DNA of 64,000 nt from Candidatus Uhrbacteria bacterium (GCA_016206175.1 JACQSB010000018.1:1334-65333); one strand, 5' to 3'; shown: positions 653 through 15,995, counted from the first letter of the stretch. The notes: a model not told the origin generated them from the sequence alone. Numbers and translations are program-made.

Positions 653-2440
653 TCATTGCGTCGGCAGTGCGGCTTTGCTTTCTTCTTTCGGACTTTCTTG
701 CGGAGCGGGATCCACTGTTTCTTCTTGAGTCGGCTGTTCCGTTGATACTGTCTCTTGCGCGCTCTGCGCGGCTAGCTCTGGTTTTACAGAGGCAGAGCTG
801 CATGCTTCTGCGATATTTTGTAATGCGCCATTAGATACCACAACGCAAAATGGCGCACCGGTCTCTGTGTCATACAGCTGGATACCGTGAGGACGGTCTG
901 CAGATCCTACGGTAAACGATTCTGTCTGTATCGATGATGCAAACAGTTTCTGTACGCGCATTACCCCGTCTTCGATCGCAACACCTACTGATGCAAGCGT
1001 GCTGCGCAGCCACGAAAGATCGATCGAGAGTATTTGCTGTGAAAGCGCTTGTATTGCCAAAAGCGCAATGCCAGAAGGATCAATCGTGGAAATGGAGCGC
1101 ATGCCCTCGATACCGCCAACGCCGAAAGCTGCATAAAATTCCTCTGCGACAGGGCCGATATGGGTGGTGTCAGAGCTGTCTGCTTTGTAGTTCCATCTTG
1201 TGATCTTAAGTTGATTCACTTTTTTAAGCATGTCGCCTGCATCAAGATCAGCAAAATTTTCTTTTAATGCTCTGCTCGATGCGTTGGTCCATGTGCCGCC
1301 TCCGGAAAGGTAAGCGCCTGACTCGGTATCAATGATGCGGTTTGCAGTAATGGCAGCGTTTTGGCCGACAGCGGGGGTTCCGAGATACAAAGTTGCCGCG
1401 CTGGATACTGTTTGCCCGGGCACTTCTCCGGTAACTGTGGGTGCGTCAATGGTCATTGCGCGAGCATATGGGTGCGTGCTGGTGCCAGTGCCTTGCAGCG
1501 TTATCGACGGCTCGGCGACATGCAATCCTTTGATTGGCGCATCCGCTCGGCCCGCCATGCTCAACGCAACAGTGACAGCACCACGTAAGCTCGTCTCGCC
1601 GTCAGTTGCCAGTGAAGAGAATTCGGCTTCTTCACTTTTCAATGACTCTGAATTCAATGCTGTGGCTGTAAAAGATGTCGCTCCTTCAGAATCAATGATT
1701 GCGGGTATATAGTGCTGCTGAATGCCATCAATGCCCGGCAATCCATTCAAGTTTTGCGATGTTCCTGGCGTACCTGCAGGTCCGGTATCCCCTTTTTTGC
1801 CTTGCGGACCCGTAAGGGCGCCGGAAGCGACAAGAGCGTCAATATACGAACGCACCGCTGAGTCCATTTCCTTGCGGAGCGTAGGGGCATCTATGGAAGC
1901 GGTACCAACTGCAACAATCTGCGTGGAGTCGCCCTCATCGCCGGCACTTTGCATCTCGCTATCTTTGCCTTGATGATCTGTTGCTAAAAGGCTTACTTTC
2001 TTTACTGATCCATCTGTTCCAGATTCGCCCTTCGGACCCCTTGGACCCCTCTCTCCCCTACCACCTTTTTCACCGCGAGGTCCTTGATCTCCCTTTGGCC
2101 CGGGAACACCTCGCAAAGCACCGGAAGAAGCTAATGAGTCAATGTATGTAGAAACCATAGTACTCATTTGTTCTTCATGGTCCTCGCTTATCTCTCCTTG
2201 ATTGTGTCCATGATCCCCATGGATATCCTCTTCTCCTGTTGTTGAAACATGAAACTCGCGGAATACCTTCCCAACCTCTTGTTCAACGAGTACCTGAATC
2301 GCTCCCGGCGACAACGTGGAATGTGCAACTTCCAAGTCAACCGCCTTTTGGGTATAGAATGCATGGATCGGGAATGAGGAAAGCACAAACACCAGGGCTG
2401 CAGGCGCTACAAAAAATGCGGAATAATGATTCCATTTCAT
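653..2440 (-). CDS. secreted collagen-like repeat protein with C-terminal peptidase S74 intramolecular-chaperone (tail-fibre type) domain
   Basis: ORF 653..2545. Likely start is ATG 2440 (MKWNHYSAFFVAPAALVFVLSS, AAGGA RBS upstream). Two G-X-Y tracts (GPKGDQGPRGEKGGRGERGPRGPKGESG; GPQGKKGDTGPAGTPG). His/acid tract EEDIHGDHGHNQGEISEDHEE. SSRALKENF...IGPVAEEF...LLAIQAL matches the S74 autoprocessing signature. Confidence 0.8.
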   Translation of the reverse strand: MKWNHYSAFFVAPAALVFVLSSFPIHAFYTQKAVDLEVAHSTLSPGAIQVLVEQEVGKVFREFHVSTTGEEDIHGDHGHNQGEISEDHEEQMSTMVSTYIDSLASSGALRGVPGPKGDQGPRGEKGGRGERGPRGPKGESGTDGSVKKVSLLATDHQGKDSEMQSAGDEGDSTQIVAVGTASIDAPTLRKEMDSAVRSYIDALVASGALTGPQGKKGDTGPAGTPGTSQNLNGLPGIDGIQQHYIPAIIDSEGATSFTATALNSESLKSEEAEFSSLATDGETSLRGAVTVALSMAGRADAPIKGLHVAEPSITLQGTGTSTHPYARAMTIDAPTVTGEVPGQTVSSAATLYLGTPAVGQNAAITANRIIDTESGAYLSGGGTWTNASSRALKENFADLDAGDMLKKVNQLKITRWNYKADSSDTTHIGPVAEEFYAAFGVGGIEGMRSISTIDPSGIALLAIQALSQQILSIDLSWLRSTLASVGVAIEDGVMRVQKLFASSIQTESFTVGSADRPHGIQLYDTETGAPFCVVVSNGALQNIAEACSSASVKPELAAQSAQETVSTEQPTQEETVDPAPQESPKEESKAALPTQ

Positions 2441-2463
2441 ATATTTCCTTGATAAATTATTAT

Positions 2464-2509
2464 TGCAACTTAGTTGCAGTAACTTACCCCAAAACTTATC
2501 AACCGTCAA
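2464..2509 (-). promoter_or_regulatory. candidate promoter (-35 TTGACG, 17 nt, -10 TAAGTT) with palindromic operator TGCAACTTAGTTGCA
   Basis: Perfect 7-1-7 palindrome at 2464..2478. It lies 2 nt downstream of the -10 (2481..2486) and about 25 nt before start codon 2440. It matches 14 of 15 nt of the znuA operator at 19583..19597. Confidence 0.45.
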
Positions 2510-2645
2510 GGCAATGCCCTGTGGATAGATGCAACTTTGGTGCAATAACGATAATTACGTTCACTGGCACAAGATAGAGAAACGATAGAAACGCTCATCT
2601 ATCCGACTGGTGGGCAAAAAATGAAAATGGAAGAAAACGACGTAA

Positions 2646-6186: not shown

Positions 6187-7953
6187 TCAGTTATCACGCT
6201 CGTTGAGCTCGCGGCAGAACGCCTCGAGTTCTTCGATGGTCATGGTTGCCGTCGGCAAAGACCCGGGCTTGGAAACACTGAATCGGGCATCAGCGCTAGC
6301 AGCTTGCCGGAAGCGCACCTCGAGCTTGTGTTCTTGTTCCCATGTCCTGCCAACGAGTACCTGAAGCGGGATTCCGAGGAGTTCGGCATCCGTCAGCTTT
6401 TCGCCGATCCGCAGATCGCGATCGTCGATCAGCATGCGCAGATCCGAGTCGGACTGCAGCTGCTGGTAGATACTTTCTGCTTCAGCGCCGTTCTTCTCCG
6501 CGTTGACGGGGATAACGACGATGTGGAATGGCGTGAGGCTCCACGGCCAGATGATGCCACGCTCGTCATTGTGTTGCTCCACGATCGCTTGCACGATGCG
6601 CGAAACGCCAATGCCGTAGCAGCCCATCCAGTAGGGAGTTTTCTTGCCGAGCTCTGACGCGTAGCATGCGTCCATTGGTTCGGAGTACACCTGTTGAAGT
6701 TGGAAGATGTGGCCGAGTTCGATCCCCCGCTTCTCGACGAGCTGGCTCGTCTTGCAGTTCGGACAGTGCTGTCCCGCGACTGCTTTGGAGAGATCATGGT
6801 ATTCCGTGATTCGCGGAAAATCTCTGCCGGGGTTCACGTTGATGAAGTGAATGTCCTCTTCGTTTGCCCCGCACAAGAAATTCCGCAGGCCTTGCACTGA
6901 CCGATCGAAGAAGTACCGCACATTTGTCTTGCCGTACAGGTTGATCGGTCCGGCGAAGCCGACAGGAGCGCCAGTGACAGTCTGCACTGTTTCGGCATCC
7001 GCTGTTACCACTTCTTTTGCTCCGAGAAGATTCGCGAGCTTGATCTCGCTGATCTCGAGGTCACCGCGCATGGTGACGATCACCGGTTTCCCATCAGCAG
7101 CCATTACGATAGTCTTCGCCATCTTGGATGCAGGAATACCGGTGAACTCCTCGAGCTCTTGCACCGTACGAATGTTGGGAGTGGGCAGCTTCACGAGATC
7201 GGCAAACGCTTCTTCGGGATACCCCGGATAGTGCGCCGATGCCTTTTCCTGATTGCCGCCGTAATGGCACGCGGGACAGTACAGGAGGATATCCTCGCCG
7301 AACTCCGTGACCGCCATGAACTCCGCGCTGCCCGAGCCGCCGATGGCGCCCGAGTCAGCCTCGACCTCGATATAGTTGAAGCCGCACCGCGTGAACACAC
7401 GGTTGTAAGCGGCTTCCATCGTGTCATAGGCCTGCTTCATTGCCGCCGGATCTGCGCCGAAGGACTAGGCATCCTTCATGATGAATTCCCTACCCCGAAT
7501 CAATCCTTGGCGGGGCCGCAGTTCGTCGCGGAACTTCGGTCCCATTTGCCACAAGGTGATCGGCAGATCGCGGAAGCTCTGAAGCGTCGTACGGGCGAAG
7601 TGAGTGATCACTTCTTCCGCTGTCGGAGACATGAGAAACTCCGCGCCCTTGCGGTCCATGACCTGAAACGCGGTGTTGCTCTGGATGTACTTGTCCCACC
7701 TGCGGGTTTCTTCCCACAGGCTCCGTGGCTGCAGGATCGGCAACTCGAGCTCAACAGCGCCTGCGCGCTGCATTTCTTGCCGCACGATTGCTTCCACGTT
7801 CCGTCTGACCGCAAGGCCAAGCGGAGCCATGGTCCATACGCCGCTCGCCACCTGGGTCATAAACCCGGCCCGGATGAGCAAGCGCGTCCCCGGCGACGGA
7901 ACGTCTGCCGGGTCATCTCTCCTTGTTTTTGGGTAAAGCTTGCTGTAGTGCAT
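6187..7953 (-). pseudogene. proS: prolyl-tRNA synthetase interrupted by one in-frame TAG (7465..7467)
   Basis: Track ORFs 7465..7986 and 6187..7440 are in the same frame. The read-through is ...REFIMKDA*SFGADPAAMKQAYD.... Bacterial-type ProRS with an editing insertion. Likely start is ATG 7953 (MHYSKLY) with a GGAG RBS. Confidence 0.85.
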
Positions 7954-8082
7954 TTCTCCTTTTCCCTTCCGATGAAAACCTAGCATGCCAGGCTTTCATA
8001 TAATTTCCTTACAATGACACTATTTCAAAGGGCTCATGGTTGAGCCTAGGGTGCAATAATGTCGTTGTCAAGGAGTGCTGAA

Positions 8083-9147
8083 TCACTTCAATAGAATAAG
8101 ATTATCAGTATGAATAAGCTCTAAACCGTGAATTTTTTCCGTGCCAAGAAGTGGAATAAGTTCATCGGAAGATATTTTTACTAAACCGACGGCAATGCTA
8201 TGTTTTTGCGCGTTAATGATTTCGATGATCTCGCTAAGTCCAAATTGTCCAAATACCCGTTTCACGCCTACCGCAAGCAAGCTCTTGCCACGCAGCAATG
8301 CTTTTTCCGCCCCTTCGTCAATTTCAATACTTCCGCTGGAGTTTTTTGCCGCAAGCATCCATCGTTCTCGTTCCTTCAGTTTACTGCGAAAATGCCGAGC
8401 ATGGAATACCGTACCGACTTTCTCCCCTTTCAACGCGCGCGCGAGGTTGCCGGTCACACACCCGTTGACGAGCTGCACTTCGATGCCCACCGCGTTGCAG
8501 AGCCGGGCTGTTTTCACTTTTGAAAGCATGCCGCCTCGTCCGCCGGCAGAGATTTTTCCCGATATCACTTTGAGCAATATCGTATTTGCATCATCAACAT
8601 CGCTGATGAGCTGTGCGCCAACACCCAACGAAGGATTCTTGTCATAGAGACCATCGACATTCGTGAGGACGATTACTTTTTTTACATTGAGAAAAATTGC
8701 AAGCGCTCCGGCGAGGCTATCGTTGTCTCCAAAGCTTGTCCCCGTACCCGCTGTCACCGCGTCGTTTTCATTGATGATCGGTATCACTCCGCGTAAGACA
8801 AGTTCTTTTATGATTTTTTGGATATTCTTGCCATTGTCCCGCTCAATGAGATCAACACGTGTCAACAAAATCTCAGCAAGGCGACATTCCTGCTCGCGGG
8901 CAACTTTTGCGTACTCACCAAAAAGCGCGGGCTGCCCCACGCTCGCGGCAGTCGCGATAGATGCGCGAGCATCATCAAGTATATGGCGTCCGTATTTCGT
9001 CGCTCCAGAACTTACCAGCACGATCGTAATGCCTCGTTTAGCAGCATATGCGATCGTCGACAATAAATCTTGAATGACTTCACGCCGCACGCGACCGTCG
9101 GATGCAATCAAGGTATCCGAGCCAACTTTTACAATAATCATTTCCAC
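8083..9147 (-). CDS. proB: glutamate 5-kinase with PUA domain
   Basis: IVKVGS...VSSGA amino-acid-kinase fold and a C-terminal PUA-like segment (GSIEIDEGAEKALLRGKSLLAVGV). Adjacent to proA. Confidence 0.9.
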   Translation of the reverse strand: MEMIIVKVGSDTLIASDGRVRREVIQDLLSTIAYAAKRGITIVLVSSGATKYGRHILDDARASIATAASVGQPALFGEYAKVAREQECRLAEILLTRVDLIERDNGKNIQKIIKELVLRGVIPIINENDAVTAGTGTSFGDNDSLAGALAIFLNVKKVIVLTNVDGLYDKNPSLGVGAQLISDVDDANTILLKVISGKISAGGRGGMLSKVKTARLCNAVGIEVQLVNGCVTGNLARALKGEKVGTVFHARHFRSKLKERERWMLAAKNSSGSIEIDEGAEKALLRGKSLLAVGVKRVFGQFGLSEIIEIINAQKHSIAVGLVKISSDELIPLLGTEKIHGLELIHTDNLILLK

Positions 9148-9161
9148 TGTATTGAGGTTAA

Positions 9162-10400
9162 TTACCTGATATGTCCGTCGCCGATCACGCGATAGGCAGG
9201 TACGGTAAGATCTTCAAGCCCCATAGGGCCACGCATATGAATACGCGCGGTGCTGATGCCGACTTCCGCGCCAAGCCCGAATTGCCCCCCATCTGTCAAG
9301 CGGTTGGAAGCATTTACAAGCACGGTCGCGCTGTCAACTCGTTTGAGGAATTCTGCAGCTGCCGTTTGATTTTCCGTAATGATAGAGTCAGTGAGACCCG
9401 AACTATATTTTGCAATATGCTCAATTGCCTCATCAAGAGATGAAACCACTTTCATGGATACAATTAAATCCAGATACTCGGTATCCCAATCTTGTTCTGT
9501 TGCTGGTATGCATTCGCGATCATAGGAACACGTTTTCGCGCATCCGCGAATTTCAACTCCTTTTGCATGCAGTTGGCTGATCAGCGGTGGCATTACAGCG
9601 TCGGCAATTCCTTGGTGTATCAAAATCGTTTCAACGGAATTGCACGTGGCGGGATTTGATGTTTTTGCATTGACGGCGATCTGAATAGCCTTTTGGATGT
9701 CAGCAGCAGCGTCGATATAGGCATGGCACAACCCGCGCATGTGCTTGATCACCGGGACGCGCGCATGATCACAAACAGCTTTGATTAACGATTCGCGGCC
9801 GCGCGGGATAACCAAATCAATGTACTGTTCAAGTTGCACCAATTCATTCACGGCTTCGTGGCGGCGATCTTCGACGAGCTGGACCGCCATGGCAGGCAGT
9901 CCTGCTTGAGAAAGAGCGTCGCGGACGCAACGCATCAATGCCTCACAAGAATGCAAGGCCTCTTTACCGGGACGCAGAAGCAAGGCATTCCCGCTTTTTA
10001 TACAAAGCGCCGCAACATCGACAACAACATTAGGGCGCGATTCAAAAATAAAAACGATGACGCCGATCGGCGTACGGACACGTTCAATGCGTAGTCCGTC
10101 AGGCCGCGTCCACGATCGCACGAGCGTGCCGACCGGATCGGGAAGTTCGCGGATATCGCGTACGCCGTCTGCGATTGCGGCAATACTTGCATCCGTAAGT
10201 TCGAGGCGGCGCCGCATCGCAGGAGTGATATCGAAATGTTCGGCGATATCTTTTTTGTTAGCTTCGATGATCTGCTGCGCGGAACCGCGAAGGCACGATT
10301 CCAAATGCCGCAAAAAATCATTTTTCACTTCCGTGCTTGCAGATCGCAGTTGTATCCACGCCTCTTTTGCTTCACGCGCTTGTGTTGTGACGTCTTTCAT
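9162..10400 (-). CDS. proA: gamma-glutamyl phosphate reductase
   Basis: Aldehyde-dehydrogenase-type ProA sequence (ESRPNV, NASNRLTDGGQFGLGAE). The ORF extends to 10436, but MKDVTTQAREAK (ATG 10400) fits ProA N-termini and a TTGCAA-17-TATGCT promoter. Confidence 0.88.
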   Translation of the reverse strand: MKDVTTQAREAKEAWIQLRSASTEVKNDFLRHLESCLRGSAQQIIEANKKDIAEHFDITPAMRRRLELTDASIAAIADGVRDIRELPDPVGTLVRSWTRPDGLRIERVRTPIGVIVFIFESRPNVVVDVAALCIKSGNALLLRPGKEALHSCEALMRCVRDALSQAGLPAMAVQLVEDRRHEAVNELVQLEQYIDLVIPRGRESLIKAVCDHARVPVIKHMRGLCHAYIDAAADIQKAIQIAVNAKTSNPATCNSVETILIHQGIADAVMPPLISQLHAKGVEIRGCAKTCSYDRECIPATEQDWDTEYLDLIVSMKVVSSLDEAIEHIAKYSSGLTDSIITENQTAAAEFLKRVDSATVLVNASNRLTDGGQFGLGAEVGISTARIHMRGPMGLEDLTVPAYRVIGDGHIR

Positions 10401-10446
10401 GGAATGTAGCATACTGTCAAAAAGTATTTTTTGCAATCAAAATGTC

Positions 10447-10485
10447 AGAAAAAAGAAGCCCCACGGAAAGGATTGCACGCGGGGC
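10447..10485 (-). terminator. intrinsic terminator after the GC-rich orphan gene
   Basis: Minus strand reads GCCCCGCG...CGTGGGGC (stem with one G-U) followed by TTCTTTTTTCT. Confidence 0.6.
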
Positions 10486-10530
10486 AGAACGAAGAAAGGA
10501 TGGATGGTCCAAGAAATCGATGAGAAAGGC

Positions 10531-11040
10531 TCACACCTCTTCGACGATCCAGAGAATCCCCGGGTCAAGCATGCTGTACGTGCCGATGACTCCCTCCTCC
10601 CAGGAGTCGCCCCGTCCCTCGAGGCAGGGGAAGTACGTATCGTCCTCCGGACTGATCCATGAAGCGTCCGCCACGCAGATCATGAGCTTCCCAACACGTT
10701 CGAGTCTGTGCTCCGGATCGAGACCCGGATACAGATCCCCCCTGTGCTCAGGTGGCACCGGATACTTGTGCTTGAAAGCTCGCAGCCATTGCCCCTCGGG
10801 GCTGAAGCACTGCGATGCCAGGATGAAATCTGTCGCCTTCTGAAACGTACACGCCTCCGATGGCGTGACGATGAACCGAAACACCCTGATCTGTGCCTCG
10901 TCGATCACTACACCTGCGTGCCGCCACTCCTCTGGGGCATGTTCCTCTTCGACAAGCTCCAGCGGATCGAAGTTGTACGAGCTAAGCTCGAAAGGCTCCC
11001 CGACCTTGGGGAATTGCAGACTCCGAGAGTTGCCTCTCAT
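10531..11040 (-). CDS. hypothetical protein (169 aa), GC-rich orphan between proA and proC
   Basis: Long clean ORF with its own terminator and no recognisable motif. Composition is clearly more GC-rich than the flanking pro genes. Confidence 0.55.
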   Translation of the reverse strand: MRGNSRSLQFPKVGEPFELSSYNFDPLELVEEEHAPEEWRHAGVVIDEAQIRVFRFIVTPSEACTFQKATDFILASQCFSPEGQWLRAFKHKYPVPPEHRGDLYPGLDPEHRLERVGKLMICVADASWISPEDDTYFPCLEGRGDSWEEGVIGTYSMLDPGILWIVEEV

Positions 11041-11173
11041 TGGATTTTCCTCACTTTCCTACGAAAAGATCGTGAGCCTAGTATACAGAAAAATGTGCCC
11101 TCGTCAATTATGACGCATCAAAAACTCAAAGATTGATTCAATGCTATATCTATGCTATTTTATACTAACTACA

Positions 11174-11968
11174 ATGAAAAAAATCAAAACAATCGGAATA
11201 CTCGGCGGAGGCGTCATGGGCGAGCTGATGGCAAGCAACATCGTAAAGATATTTCCCACAGCCTCTTTAATCGTATGCGAACGCAATGGTGCGCATGCTA
11301 CCATGCTGCAAAAAAAATATCGCATTGCTGTCACGACACGGTGCGAGGATCTGATGGTGACTGACGTTATCATTCTTGCTGTGAAACCGCAGGATTTTCC
11401 ATTAGCGCGGATAATCGCAAAAAAAGATGCGCTCGTTATTTCCATTATGGCGGGGGTATCAACTGCAACAATTCGTAAACAGACACATGCAAAAAAAATC
11501 GTGCGCGCGATGCCCAACACTCCGGCGCGATTCGGTAAGGGGTTTACCGCATTTTTTGCTACGCGGACTGTTGATCGGGAAGGTATCCGATTTTGCTCGC
11601 AGCTATTTGATGGATTAGGCGTGAGCTTTCGCGTGCCGGCGGAAGAAACAATCAACAAAGTGACAGCGATAACCGGGAGCGGACCTGCTTACCTGATCGA
11701 TACTCTTGCACACTTTATGAGCGCGGCACAGAGCCTAGGGTTTTCAAAAAAAATTGCGTATCAAATGATACTGCAAACGCTCATCGGCACTGAAGCTCTT
11801 TTGGCAGATAATCCTGATCCGGAGCATCTCATCAACCAGATCGCTTCCAAAGGCGGTACAACCGAAGCTGCGCTTCGCGAATTTGAAAAAGCAGACATTC
11901 ACAAGATATGGCACAAAGCCGTTGATGCCGCCTACGCCAGGGCGCAAGAACTTGGCAAACGTATATAA
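11174..11968 (+). CDS. proC: pyrroline-5-carboxylate reductase
   Basis: MKKIKTIGILGGGVMG NADP fold and a C-terminal ASKGGTTEAAL motif. The track ORF starts at 11141, but ATG 11174 fits the Rossmann N-terminus. Confidence 0.88.
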   Translation: MKKIKTIGILGGGVMGELMASNIVKIFPTASLIVCERNGAHATMLQKKYRIAVTTRCEDLMVTDVIILAVKPQDFPLARIIAKKDALVISIMAGVSTATIRKQTHAKKIVRAMPNTPARFGKGFTAFFATRTVDREGIRFCSQLFDGLGVSFRVPAEETINKVTAITGSGPAYLIDTLAHFMSAAQSLGFSKKIAYQMILQTLIGTEALLADNPDPEHLINQIASKGGTTEAALREFEKADIHKIWHKAVDAAYARAQELGKRI

Positions 11969-12267: not shown

Positions 12268-13557
12268 TCAAGACCTCAGCCGTTTTTCATAACGATCGAA
12301 TCCAAGATTGCCGGGGGCGCCAAGGCTGATTTTCGATTTGATGTTTTCGTACGGATCGATATCTTCGTGCGAAAGCCGTTCGCATGCACGTGCATACGCG
12401 TCGCGGAACGGTATCCCTTCTTGTGTTGCCATTGCTGTTGCGATATCAGCAGAAAAAATATCTTTTTTGATCGCGGCTTTGATTGCTGCCTCATTGGGCG
12501 TAAGCGCATTGATGAGTATACCGACCACTGTGATGCTGTCTGCTGCCACCCTGGTGCTTTCGATAAGCAGTTTTTTTATCAACTGCAAATCGCGGTGGTA
12601 CCCAGACATCAAGTGAGACGCAAGGTCAACCGCGGCGGCATGATGGCTGCGCACCACCGCGCCATTGCCGCGGACAAGTTCCAAGCAGTCGAGATTGCGT
12701 TTCTGCGGCATGATGCTTGAGCCTGTTACACAGCTGTCATCTACCGAAAAAAAATCAAACTCGCGCGAGGTAAACAGGATCAAATCATTTGCGATCTTGC
12801 CTAATGTCTGCATGCATGTCGAAAGCGCTTGGAGATAAAGCGCTTCATATTTGCCGCGGCTTGACTGGCAATAGAGCGAATTCACTTGTACTCCAGAAAA
12901 GCCGAGCTCCTGCGCTGTGTATTCCCGATCGAGCGGCAATGCCACACCAAAACCGGCTGCGCTGCCAAGCGGATTTTTATCAATATGCTTGCTGACAGCT
13001 CCAAAAAAATCCCGGTCAGCAAGCAGTGACTCTGTGTAGCTGCAAAAATAATGCCCGACAGATGAAAGCATTGCTTGCTGGGTATGGGAATATCCCGGCA
13101 GAGGAATGTTTTCATATTTCTTGGCATACGCAAGCAAGGCTCGCGCAAGATCAGATGATGCATCTGAAAGCTTGCCCAGCATATCTTTCATATAGAGCCT
13201 CACCGCGACAAGAATCTGATCATTGCGGCTCCGGCCGGTATGGATCTTCTTGCCGACCGCGCCGAGCGTTTCCGTCAGATACCGCTCGATGACAGTGTGG
13301 CAGTCTTCATCCGTAGGCATGATGGTGATTGCGCGTACACTCCACTGCTCTTGCAGTGCTGCAAGCCCTGCAAGGAGTTGATCCAACTCCTTACCTGTGA
13401 GCACCCCGATACGCGCTAAGCCTTTGGCGTGCGCGCGGCTCGCAATAATGTCATATGGCATGAATACCGCATCGTTGCGGTAGTCATCCCCGATCGTGTA
13501 GCGTTCGATTATCGGATCGAGTTTTGCCGAAGATTTTTGCCAAAGTGTACCACTCAT
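12268..13557 (-). CDS. argH: argininosuccinate lyase
   Basis: Fumarate-lyase signature GSSIMPQKRN and ArgH-length alignment pattern (TGRSRNDQ). Confidence 0.92.
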   Translation of the reverse strand: MSGTLWQKSSAKLDPIIERYTIGDDYRNDAVFMPYDIIASRAHAKGLARIGVLTGKELDQLLAGLAALQEQWSVRAITIMPTDEDCHTVIERYLTETLGAVGKKIHTGRSRNDQILVAVRLYMKDMLGKLSDASSDLARALLAYAKKYENIPLPGYSHTQQAMLSSVGHYFCSYTESLLADRDFFGAVSKHIDKNPLGSAAGFGVALPLDREYTAQELGFSGVQVNSLYCQSSRGKYEALYLQALSTCMQTLGKIANDLILFTSREFDFFSVDDSCVTGSSIMPQKRNLDCLELVRGNGAVVRSHHAAAVDLASHLMSGYHRDLQLIKKLLIESTRVAADSITVVGILINALTPNEAAIKAAIKKDIFSADIATAMATQEGIPFRDAYARACERLSHEDIDPYENIKSKISLGAPGNLGFDRYEKRLRS

Positions 13558-13633: not shown

Positions 13634-14908
13634 CTAGTTTTTATGCAATTCGCTCTCAAAATCATACATCTGAAATGCCGTTCGCTGCGCAAGCGTGTAT
13701 ATCTCAATGAATCCTGCTGACGCGTTTTGATTGAACGTTGCATTCCGCTCAAACGTTGCAAGCGAATGGTCAAATAGAGAATACGGTGATTGCACTGCGA
13801 CTACATCAATGTTGCCTTTATATAATCTCACCGTGCATGAGCCTGTCACCTTTTTATTTTGGCTGTTCATGAATGCATGGATGTGGTACATGACAGGGTC
13901 ATACCATTTTGCCGCATAGGTCAGATATGCCCATTTTGTATCCATGAAGGTCTTTAATTCATTCTCTTCTCGAGTGGATACGAGCCGCTCGAGATTCTTA
14001 TGCGCGGCAATCAAAATGCTCGCTCCCGGATTTTCATACACGCCCCGCACCTTGAGCCCCACAAGCCGATCTTCAATCAGATGAAACACGCCCACGCCGT
14101 GCTCTGCGCCGAGTGCGTTGCAGTATTTAACGAGCTCGCTTAATTTCATCGCTTTGCCGTCCGCCTTTACGGGAATCCCTTTATCGAATTGTATAGTGAT
14201 CGTTTGCGGCGTGTCCGAAGCGCTCTCGACCGTCTTGCACCACTGCAAGATATTTTCCAGCGGAGGAATCAGCTCGGGATTTTCAATCTCTCCGCCTTCG
14301 CCGGTATTGCCCCACATGTTTTCATCATAGGAATAGGGGCTGTTCGCTTGCTGTTTGATCGGGATATGATTTTTTTCTGCGTATGCGATCTCTTCTTGGC
14401 GGCCCATCCCCCACTCCCGTACAGGAGCGATGATTTTGATCTTTGGATCAAGTGTTGTCATATATCCTTCAAATCGCACTTGATCATTCCCCTTTCCGGT
14501 GCAGCCATGCGCAATGACGGTACAGTCGTTTTCTCGCGCTGCTTTCACTGCGATTTTTGATATCGCTACTCTTCCTAACGGCGTGCTTAATGCATATCCA
14601 CCTTGATAATCAGCATTTGCCTTAATCGCCTCGGTTAAGAGGACATCGGCAAATTCATCTTTCGCGTCATACACGATCGTTTTTTTTGCTCCGAGCCGTA
14701 GCGCTTTCTCTTTGATTTCTTCCAGATTGTCAGCAGTCTGCCCCAGATCGATCGTGAGCGTGATGACATCGCACTGATACTCCTCTTGGATCCATTTGAG
14801 CATCACGGATGTATCAAGCCCTCCGGAATACAAAAGAAGGCAGGAGCTAAACTCCCCTTTCTGCGCCTCATGGGAGGCTACCTTTTTATAGGATGTAGCA
14901 CTATTCAT
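13634..14908 (-). CDS. argG: argininosuccinate synthase
   Basis: LLLYSGGLDTS ATP-PPase motif and AHGCTGKGNDQVRFE. The track ORF reaches 15001, but that part overlaps the T-box terminator. ATG 14908 (MNSATSYKK) is the likely start. Confidence 0.9.
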   Translation of the reverse strand: MNSATSYKKVASHEAQKGEFSSCLLLYSGGLDTSVMLKWIQEEYQCDVITLTIDLGQTADNLEEIKEKALRLGAKKTIVYDAKDEFADVLLTEAIKANADYQGGYALSTPLGRVAISKIAVKAARENDCTVIAHGCTGKGNDQVRFEGYMTTLDPKIKIIAPVREWGMGRQEEIAYAEKNHIPIKQQANSPYSYDENMWGNTGEGGEIENPELIPPLENILQWCKTVESASDTPQTITIQFDKGIPVKADGKAMKLSELVKYCNALGAEHGVGVFHLIEDRLVGLKVRGVYENPGASILIAAHKNLERLVSTREENELKTFMDTKWAYLTYAAKWYDPVMYHIHAFMNSQNKKVTGSCTVRLYKGNIDVVAVQSPYSLFDHSLATFERNATFNQNASAGFIEIYTLAQRTAFQMYDFESELHKN

Positions 14909-14930
14909 ACTTATTACGATTACATAAATT

Positions 14931-15300
14931 AAAAAACTCTCGTTCCAACTCATCAACAAAAAACATGTTGATGAAGGAGCGAGAGTTTTTCGCGGTACCA
15001 TCCTTCATTCCCCCTTATCCTCGCGGATGAAGGGCTCTGCCAGTGCGTCCTTTTCAATGAAAGGCTACACTGTCGCGTATGATGACGGACGCGTGCCGGC
15101 GGCACCTACTTGTTCCGTTTTGCAGCGCTTGCATCCGCGCTGCGGAACTTTCTTCGGCTGCTACCAAAGGATAGGAATCTTCCTATCCTTAAGAGGCGCG
15201 TTCGAAATACTCTGTGTCATCGGGCTTTCACCATTCCCCGACTCGCTTGCCGTACGCAGCTACGCACAGCTTTGACACCGTAGCATTCCTACTATTCCTC
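14931..15300 (-). promoter_or_regulatory. T-box leader (tRNA-sensing riboswitch), Arg CGC specifier, with intrinsic terminator
   Basis: Minus strand shows the Stem I distal motif GAGUCGGGGAAUGGUGAAAGCCCGAUGA, the specifier loop AGAGUAUUUCGAA-CGC-G, the Stem II hairpin AAGGAUAGGAAGAUUCCUAUCCUU and the T-box AAGGAUGGUACCGCG. The terminator is CUCUCGCUCC...GGAACGAGAG plus UUUUUU ending near 14931. Confidence 0.8.
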
Positions 15301-15374
15301 GTGGTATTTCAATCTTCTTTTTTAAATGTACAAAAATAGAATGACACAAACAAAAAATCTGTCAAGAATTTTTG

Positions 15375-15995
15375 CTATTCAACCGATATAGATGTAATCA
15401 CAACATCCTCTAACGGCTTGTCAGAGGCATTGGTCTGCACTGCGCCGATTGCATCTACCACTTCCTGTCCCGCTGTGACCGCGCCAAAGATCGTATAGTT
15501 ATTCGGCAATGGATAATCCTCCAACATGATGAAAAATTGGCTGCCGTTCGTGTTTGGTCCTGCGTTTGCCATCGCTACCACTCCTTTTCTATATCCGCGC
15601 TGATAGCTCTCTGTTGCCGGGTTTAGCTCATCTTCAAATGTGTAGCCGGGGCCACCAGTGCCGTCGCCGTTCGGATCTCCGCCCTGGATCATAAATCCGC
15701 TTATGACGCGGTGAAACTTCAGACCATCGTAAAATCCCTTTGAAGCAAGGGTGACAAAATTCTCAACAGTCTTTGGCGCATCAACATCGTACGTCTGAAA
15801 CGTGATATCGCCCTTTGAAGTGTGAAGCGTGATAGAATGCATGCCGTTTTTTGTAATGATTGAGGATTGCTCTGGAGATGATGCTGTCGGACGTCCTGCC
15901 TTCTGGTTGTCAGAGCCAGAGAATGCAGCCCATGATACCGCTCCGCCGACGACAAGAAAAATCCCAGCCGCAACAATGACTTTTATATTATTCAT
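15375..15995 (-). CDS. membrane-anchored cyclophilin-type peptidyl-prolyl cis-trans isomerase
   Basis: N-terminal TM helix followed by FHRVISGFMIQGGDP...GSQFFI cyclophilin motifs. Confidence 0.9.
   Translation of the reverse strand: MNNIKVIVAAGIFLVVGGAVSWAAFSGSDNQKAGRPTASSPEQSSIITKNGMHSITLHTSKGDITFQTYDVDAPKTVENFVTLASKGFYDGLKFHRVISGFMIQGGDPNGDGTGGPGYTFEDELNPATESYQRGYRKGVVAMANAGPNTNGSQFFIMLEDYPLPNNYTIFGAVTAGQEVVDAIGAVQTNASDKPLEDVVITSISVE

Follow-up and report, generated by a model that had tools for sequence, protein, structure and literature searches.

Does the RNA leader in front of argG-argH in a Candidatus Uhrbacteria genome respond to tRNA-Arg? The leader lies on the minus strand of a 64,000-nucleotide (nt) stretch from this member of the Patescibacteria, or candidate phyla radiation (CPR) (GCA_016206175.1 JACQSB010000018.1:1334-65333; hereafter the window). 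TypA/BipA of the window is 100% identical to an NCBI protein annotated as Candidatus Uhrbacteria, and its next best matches all come from Uhrbacteria, Parcubacteria or Patescibacteria, which places the window in a CPR genome. A first-pass annotation made from the sequence alone had read it as a T-box riboswitch with an arginine specifier, CGC, that controls the genes for argininosuccinate synthase (argG) and argininosuccinate lyase (argH). On the comparative evidence set out below, we conclude that the leader is very probably a genuine tRNA-sensing class I T-box with the Arg codon CGC. Every motif quoted in the annotation was present at its position on the minus strand (GGUGAAAG at 15232..15225, AGAGUA at 15213..15208, GAA-CGC-G at 15203..15197, the T-box sequence, both terminator arms and U6). 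The whole element, from the base of Stem I to the U-run of the terminator, spans 14931..15307 (minus strand, as for all leader features below), as delimited by its Rfam match, its folding and its homologs.

We searched a 651-nt region around the leader and, separately, the whole window with Rfam. At an E-value threshold, the T-box family RF00230 matched 14972..15308 over the full model (positions 1-219) with 48.7 bits (E = 1.3e-9 in the 651-nt region and 1.3e-7 over the whole window), and this was the sole credible RNA-family match in the window. The search with this model, which the first-pass annotation had named as a check, therefore gave a significant full-model match, yet one below the RF00230 gathering score of 93 bits. 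Against dinucleotide shuffles, the fold of the 396-nt leader had a z-score of -8.3. A scan of the window for the T-box core with up to three mismatches followed by a U-run, together with Rfam at the E-value threshold, recovered only the argG leader and no further T-box, for instance before proBA or proS.

A search of one genome per species for relatives of the window ArgG yielded 80 loci (L001-L080), mostly CPR metagenome-assembled genomes (MAGs), with some from Calditrichia, Balneolaceae, Melioribacteraceae and Francisella. Among these 80, nhmmer with the window leader matched only an Uhrbacteria MAG (L001) and a Patescibacteria MAG (L002), both at E ~1e-37; among the other 78, nhmmer and a fuzzy search for the T-box core found a T-box in L079 alone, where it is truncated. 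A metagenome scan with a T-box/antiterminator pattern matched five loci (L081-L085). Two of these (L081 and L084) encode an ArgG 96% identical to that of the window and one (L085) an ArgG 82% identical, a fourth (L083) has a more divergent leader and a different downstream gene, and the last (L082) was discarded as a chance match within coding sequence. The resulting set holds seven leaders from five lineages: the window with L081 and L084 as one lineage, and L001, L002, L085 and L083. Apart from argG and argH, the surroundings of the T-box-bearing loci show no synteny with the window. Leaders of the insertion-free relatives matched RF00230 with 66-81 bits (E from 2.5e-12 to 3.4e-16).

We aligned the seven leaders (alignment A2) and realigned their cores after removal of three insertions found in the window lineage, which gave a clean alignment (A3). 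On A3, a hand-drawn T-box architecture was 89% paired, compared with 37-51% when the 3' partners were slid by 1-3 columns. The first-pass annotation had suggested a covariation alignment of homologous leaders, and this one contained 25 pairs changed on both sides in the antiterminator form and 29 in the terminator form, compared with 4-10 in the slid controls; none of 500 shuffles matched the observed pairing or covariation of the hand-drawn structure. RNAalifold, run independently, reported 27 compensatory pairs. Three helices (P1c, hairpin X and Stem III) were put out of register by MAFFT, and each forms in every lineage from different sequence when folded or anchored separately. For the relatives without insertions, the Rfam alignment itself puts Stem II, the F-box and GAA-CGC-G at the positions of the hand-drawn model. 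The pattern used for the metagenome search partly imposed antiterminator invariance on the four loci that it contributed. One long-range helix proposed by RNAalifold, pairing GGUAGCAGCC (15165..15156) with the T-box core, was rejected: it has no support from covariation, L002 cannot form two of its pairs, and it is incompatible both with helix P0, which covaries, and with the lower helix of Stem II, which is conserved.

Which codon would such a T-box read? The specifier loop is a 7+7-nt internal loop. Its 5' side, AAUAGUA (15290..15296), carries an AGUA box that is invariant in all lineages and aligned to GGAaaAGUA of the model; its 3' side, GAA-CGC-G (15197..15203, with the codon CGC at 15200..15198 and the following purine G at 15197), is invariant in all seven leaders. 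The 3' strand is exactly 7 nt long and lies between two covarying helices, P1b and P1a, which are 96-100% paired and contain five and two doubly changed pairs, respectively. P1a, directly below the loop, pairs GAGG (15297..15300) with CCUC (15196..15193); it is 100% paired in six sequences, and GAGG/CCUC becomes GGGG/CCCC in L002 and GGGA/UUCC in L083. P1b, directly above, pairs GGAAUGCU (15289..15282) with AGUAUUUC (15211..15204), and five of its eight pairs are doubly changed. Both the Rfam alignments and our family alignment place CGC at the specifier position in all five lineages, which, together with the significant RF00230 match, upholds the earlier reading of an Arg (CGC) T-box in front of argG-argH. 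The annotation had taken AGAGUA (15213..15208) for the S-turn. This hexamer is instead part of the 3' strand of Stem I at the junction of P1c and P1b, and relatives do not conserve it; the AGUA box that they do conserve is that of AAUAGUA at 15296..15290.

The frame of the specifier matters here, as GAA-CGC-G could also be read as GCG (Ala, -1) or ACG (Thr, +1), in which case a functional T-box would sense a different tRNA. We read it as CGC because the T-box database TBDB takes as its priority specifier frame the nucleotides 2-4, counted back from the loop's 3' end (PMC7778990). A minority of T-boxes do use the -1 or +1 frame (PMC7778990), and the L083 copy of the leader controls a gene of unassigned function. 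However, the canonical geometry of GAA, three nucleotides and a purine between covarying helices points to CGC as the priority frame, all targets that could be identified belong to the arginine pathway (argG, argH or the ornithine carbamoyltransferase (OTCase) gene), and a codon that ends in C fits the 'C-rule', Arg T-boxes strongly preferring C-ending specifiers (PMC7778990). We regard a specifier in another frame as highly improbable.

The rest of upper Stem I (15204..15289) consists, beyond P1b, of P1c, an AG bulge, P1d and a distal loop. P1c (GUGUCA 15278..15273 with UGACAC 15219..15214) forms in each lineage from divergent sequence: GUGUCA/UGACAC, GAUCA/UGAUC, GGUCA/UGAUU and UUGCU/AGUAA. 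The AG bulge AGCGAG (15247..15242) is conserved and aligned to AGAGA of the model. Above it, P1d pairs UCGGG with CCCGA, and two of its five pairs are doubly changed (UCGGG/CCCGA to CUGGG/CCCAG). The distal loop AAUGGUGAAAG (15235..15225), also conserved, is aligned to UUGGUGaaA / GGUGaaA of the model. The AG bulge and the distal loop are the predicted platform for the tRNA elbow.

At the other end of the leader, the T-box sequence AAGGAUGGUACCGCG (15005..14991) forms the 5' half of an antiterminator, GAAGGA[UGGUACC]GCGA ... UCGC UCCUUC (14973..15006), which is aligned to aGGGUGGUACCGCG...CGUCCCuu of the model. Its 7-nt bulge begins with UGGU (15000..14997), and the helix GAAGGA[UGGUACC]GCGA...UCGCUCCUUC is 100% paired in all lineages, with an energy of -10.4 kcal/mol in the window. 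An intrinsic terminator follows, ACUCUCGCUCCUUCAUCAAC...GUUGAUGAGUUGGAACGAGAGU plus U6 (14931..14986, with U6 at 14936..14931), whose core arms are CUCUCGCUCC (14985..14976) and GGAACGAGAG (14946..14937) and whose 5' arm shares sequence with the 3' half of the antiterminator. Since 14982..14973, the antiterminator's 3' strand, is part of the terminator's 5' arm (14986..14967), the two structures are mutually exclusive. The terminator hairpin has an energy of -25.5 kcal/mol, the minimum free energy (MFE) of the segment from the T-box to U6 is -31.0 kcal/mol, and across all lineages antiterminators of -8.6 to -10.4 kcal/mol face terminator-containing MFEs of -25 to -38 kcal/mol. Four of the eight pairs in the upper helix of the terminator are doubly changed. 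The competing terminator and U6 of the first-pass annotation were therefore borne out, except that the distance from the U-run to the argG ATG (14908) is 22 nt rather than 23.

The position of this hairpin also bears on whether the leader would act on transcription or on translation. T-boxes that act on translation exist in Actinobacteria (PMC7778990), there is no obvious Shine-Dalgarno sequence in the 22 nt before the argG ATG, and a generic scanner missed the terminator, so a class II-like sequestrator would be conceivable. In contrast, the window has a hairpin of -25.5 kcal/mol, U6-U7 directly follows the hairpin in every lineage, and the leader has a full-length, long Stem I, Stem II and IIA/B region, as in class I. 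The hairpin also ends 22 nt upstream of the start and leaves the ribosome-binding site and ATG free, which points to transcriptional rather than translational control; we give the translational alternative scarcely any credence.

The same segment contains a feature that could suggest a leader with no tRNA partner at all: a 455-amino-acid (aa) open reading frame (ORF; 13634..15001, ATG at 15001) spans the terminator and part of the T-box. The leader might then attenuate through a leader peptide, bind a protein or encode an N-terminal extension of ArgG. However, the lengths of the insertions and deletions that distinguish relatives between T-box and ATG are not divisible by 3, alignments with ArgG homologs begin at residue 1 of the 424-aa form, and the element has a full-length T-box match and RNA covariation. 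The 455-aa ORF is an artefact, as the T-box-to-ATG spacing differs modulo 3 among lineages, and the frame analysis and covariation together effectively refute a reading without tRNA.

Upstream of the tRNA-sensing T-box that we favor, a cyclophilin gene ends at 15375. Between that gene and Stem I, a -35-like box, TTGACA (15360..15365), lies in a conserved block, CTCTTGACAGATTTTTT, which is identical in the window, L001 and L002 (alignment A1). A consensus promoter scan found no full -35/-10 pair on the minus strand; the conservation of the TTGACA block suggests a promoter role.

The genes downstream fit the codon. The 424-aa argG product (13634..14908, minus strand) matched NF001770 with 484 bits (cut-off 334) and has the Pfam Arginosuc_synth and C-terminal domains; the 429-aa argH product (12268..13557, minus strand) matched TIGR00838 with 301.8 bits (cut-off 279.5) and has the Pfam Lyase_1 domain. 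Both exceed the NCBIfam equivalog cut-offs, and CGC encodes Arg, so the agreement between codon and pathway product noted in the first-pass annotation stands. The leader precedes argG-argH in the window, L002 and L084; an OTCase gene directly follows argG in L085 and lies ~180 nt further downstream of argG in L001. With the specifier CGC, every identifiable target of these leaders is an arginine-pathway gene.

From these elements we propose the following switch. In bacteria the codon CGC is read by tRNA-Arg(ACG/ICG), and the U of UGGU would pair with a discriminator A73; the partner is presumably this ACG/ICG isoacceptor with A73. In the default fold, the strong terminator and U6 would stop transcription before argG. 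When arginine is scarce, the anticodon of uncharged tRNA-Arg would pair with the CGC that Stem I presents in its 7+7-nt loop, and the tRNA elbow would dock on the AG bulge and distal loop. The free 3' ACCA end of the uncharged tRNA would then pair with the UGGU bulge and stabilise the weak antiterminator, which would take up the 5' arm of the terminator and allow RNA polymerase to read through into argG-argH. A charged tRNA would make no acceptor-end contact, and termination would prevail. ArgG and ArgH would in this way regenerate arginine from citrulline when tRNA-Arg charging falls. Arginine metabolism is central to cultivated CPR bacteria via the arginine deiminase pathway. As apparently a selected, native T-box, the leader would mean that at least some Uhrbacteria sense the charging of tRNA-Arg directly and link the two final steps of arginine synthesis to it.

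Several observations weigh against reading the leader as a working T-box. At the gathering threshold, Rfam reported no match in the whole window: 48.7 bits is about half of the gathering score, so the curated criterion is formally failed, and the clade as a whole scores 41.7-81.2 bits against RF00230, with no member reaching 93. The positions of the kink turn (K-turn) of RF00230 are deleted in the window alignment, and the tandem of G.A pairs that we sought between P0 and P1a is conserved nowhere and is absent from the window and L002; by inspection, only L001 could form one. Both the antiterminator helices and the candidate strands of the IIA/B pseudoknot are invariant across lineages, so covariation is uninformative about these two structures. 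A T-box precedes argG in just three of the 80 species-representative genomes with a related ArgG. A generic promoter/terminator scanner called neither a terminator nor a promoter on the minus strand. Finally, there are no tRNA genes in the window and no tRNA-Arg gene in the 85 fetched loci; the tRNA beside the L083 leader is tRNA-Gln.

Some of these points have an explanation in the alignment itself. The score of the window leader is lowered by insertions of 23, 71 and ~30 nt that the alignment has to accommodate, by the deletion of the K-turn positions and by a mis-aligned Stem II. The K-turn is missing in some T-boxes, and its absence marks a variant rather than an exclusion. Together with the low score, the three insertions of the window lineage and the missing K-turn might nevertheless indicate a decaying or non-switching relic, a constitutive attenuator or stabilising structure that does not respond to tRNA. 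Such a relic could follow horizontal acquisition with argG, and both the rarity of the leader among genomes with a related ArgG and the scatter of this ArgG clade over phyla, which suggests horizontal transfer, would fit it. However, the specifier, AG bulge, distal loop, purine-rich loop of Stem II, F-box and UGGU bulge are invariant in five lineages in which the helices have diverged by compensatory changes, a pattern that marks a functional switch under purifying selection, and the insertions lie at helix tips and junctions, outside the contact elements. We consider a relic very unlikely and a selected, tRNA-responsive T-box the better account of the leader.

The three extra hairpins are shared by the window, L081 and L084; L001, L002, L085 and L083 lack them. 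The first (15248..15271) lies beside the AG bulge. The second, AAGGAUAGGAAGAUUCCUAUCCUU (15167..15190), stands between P1a and P0 and creates a three-way junction at the usual site of the K-turn. The third (15142..15123) extends the tip of Stem II. Each is single-copy in the window, where we looked for further copies of a dispersed palindromic repeat and found none, which indicates local expansions rather than a dispersed repeat.

The second insertion had been mistaken for Stem II. Rfam places Stem II of the window leader at 15190..15167, and the first-pass annotation had likewise taken the hairpin after the specifier for Stem II; we rejected this placement because the hairpin is absent from four lineages (L001, L002, L085 and L083), in which Rfam aligns Stem II to GCAGCC...GGUGC. 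The real Stem II (15102..15161) has a lower helix, GCAGCC/GGUGC, an upper helix, GUUCCG/CGGAAC, in which five of six pairs are doubly changed, and a purine-rich internal loop, GAAGAAAG / CAAGUA. The corresponding region of the insertion-free relatives is matched by Rfam to GAA...AGUA in Stem II of the model.

Downstream of Stem II, the Stem IIA hairpin CGCGU...ACGCG (15074..15093) has two of its five pairs doubly changed and carries in its loop an F-box-like CCGUCA (15088..15083), CCGUUA in relatives, that is aligned to the F-box of the model. Between IIA/B and Stem III lies a further hairpin, which we call hairpin X (15041..15072), outside the Rfam consensus. It forms in every lineage, with an inner sequence that differs by lineage and a conserved outer helix of 5-6 bp that includes one double change. 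Stem III (CCCUU.AUCC GCGA GGAU.AAGGG followed by AA; 15011..15034) is likewise formed in all lineages, by sequences that differ, such as CUUCUUUUUC/GAAAAGGAAG in L002 and CUUGGCUAA/UUAGUCGAG in L083, and three of its eight pairs are doubly changed even in the imperfect MAFFT register.

Stem I is closed by helix P0, which pairs UACCA (15302..15306) with UGGUA (15166..15162). Across lineages, this helix is UACCA/UGGUA in the window, ACCGC/GCGGU in L002 and UACU/AGUA in L083; its register is ambiguous in L001 and L085. The 5' UACCA of the leader (15302-15306) resembles the A-CCA end of a tRNA and is complementary both to the UGGUA of P0 (15162-15166) and to the same pentamer, UGGUA, in the T-box bulge (14996-15000, minus strand); ACCGCC in L002 can likewise pair with GCGGU or GGUGGU. 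This likeness to a tRNA end is probably a by-product of P0, and the UACCA may act as a competitor in cis for the site of the tRNA acceptor end.

How does the leader compare with known T-boxes? Like canonical class I T-boxes (RF00230; Bacillus tyrS/glyQS), it has a specifier loop of AGUA and GAA-codon-purine, an AG bulge with a GGUGAAAG-type distal loop, a purine-rich loop in Stem II, a IIA hairpin with F-box, Stem III, a UGGN bulge and an overlapping terminator with a U-run. Unlike them, it lacks a K-turn at the base of Stem I and has the clade-wide hairpin X, and all members of the clade score 42-81 bits, below 93; the window lineage has in addition three hairpin insertions, one of which forms the three-way junction at the K-turn site. 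With class II translational T-boxes of the actinobacterial ileS type (PMC7778990, PMC11297988) it shares an occurrence outside Bacillota, a specifier and a UGGN bulge. Whereas class II T-boxes have a truncated Stem I and a sequestrator over the ribosome-binding site, the Uhrbacteria leader combines a long Stem I, which bears a distal platform, with a terminator and U-run clear of the start codon. By every criterion of sequence and structure except the curated bit score and the K-turn, the leader would be classed as a class I T-box.

The first-pass annotation had also expected an Arg T-box on arginine biosynthesis genes to be uncommon in this kind of genome. The target is not new: Clostridioides difficile has T-boxes upstream of its genes for argininosuccinate synthase (CD1785), argininosuccinate lyase (CD2500) and argC (CD2034) (PMC11477304). 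Like these Arg T-boxes, with the likeness being one of gene placement as described, the Uhrbacteria leader precedes arginine biosynthesis genes including argG and argH rather than an aminoacyl-tRNA synthetase gene, and the regulatory logic is presumably shared. Unlike in C. difficile, a member of the Bacillota, one leader controls argG and argH together. The host, Uhrbacteria within Patescibacteria, is indeed unusual, and in this respect the expectation holds. A full-text literature search returned no paper that links T-boxes with Patescibacteria/CPR, and a 2024 perspective describes CPR/Patescibacteria gene regulation as virtually unknown and mentions riboswitches just as engineering tools (PMC11665869). 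The mechanism is ordinary and Arg-pathway T-boxes are already known; as far as the searchable literature goes, the novelty lies in the host.

We suggest, tentatively and as less probable than not, that these leaders form a Patescibacteria-resident subclass of T-boxes, without a K-turn, with the additional hairpin X and with expansion-prone helices, that is missed by Rfam thresholds. Its members might make up a small tRNA-Arg regulon (argG-argH, argG with OTCase, and a GNAT-like gene in L083) that tunes citrulline-to-arginine salvage to tRNA charging in ultrasmall symbiotic bacteria with almost no known regulators. If this is true, they would count among the first native regulators of riboswitch type to be reported from the CPR radiation. 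With clade scores of 42-81 bits and a gathering score of 93, standard Rfam annotation will not report such leaders, and T-box distribution outside Bacillota may therefore be under-counted. The value of the finding is phylogenetic and annotation-related rather than conceptual, as the mechanism is the textbook one.

The gene behind the L083 leader differs from the other targets. This divergent T-box of the same clade (L083:4398-4700, minus strand; RF00230 81.2 bits) also has GAA-CGC-G and precedes an ORF of 222 aa (L083:3586-4254), with ~140 nt from the terminator to the ORF. The 222-aa protein had no Pfam or NCBIfam match and showed weak similarity to the GNAT fold (CurA loading domain 2REE, E 1.8e-4), and a gene for a hydrolase of the MBL fold comes next. 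The protein is a possible new member of a tRNA-Arg regulon.

The truncated element in L079 is of another kind. L079:1-110 is the 3' half of a different T-box, whose 5' part, including the specifier, was lost at the contig start; it retains a perfect GGUGGUACCGCG core, the antiterminator/terminator and a U-run, and precedes an OTCase-like gene, argG and an arginine-decarboxylase-like gene. This MAG, with a GC content of 43%, carries the unverified label of an uncultured gammaproteobacterium. The ArgG type of the window (424 aa; 64-82% identity) is common to many CPR lineages and to Calditrichia, Balneolaceae, Melioribacteraceae and Francisella, and these scattered phyla suggest a horizontal spread of the gene.

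In the window, a proline cluster (8083-11968) adjoins argG-argH, with proB (8083-9147), proA (9162-10436) and the convergent proC (11141-11968); neither an Rfam element nor a T-box was found before it. CPR genomes are usually credited with less amino-acid biosynthesis than the cluster of proline and argG-argH genes found here. The prolyl-tRNA synthetase gene proS (6187-7986, minus strand) contains a single in-frame TAG (7465-7467) exactly where the class II motif 'MKDaYSF' has its conserved Tyr; a one-base change would turn this TAG into TAY. No second proS was seen in the window, and the TAG could reflect a pseudogene, an assembly error or stop-codon suppression. Elsewhere in the window, a 630-aa protein (653-2545, minus strand) has a Peptidase_S74 (endosialidase chaperone) domain, which occurs in phage tail fibres and in some surface proteins.

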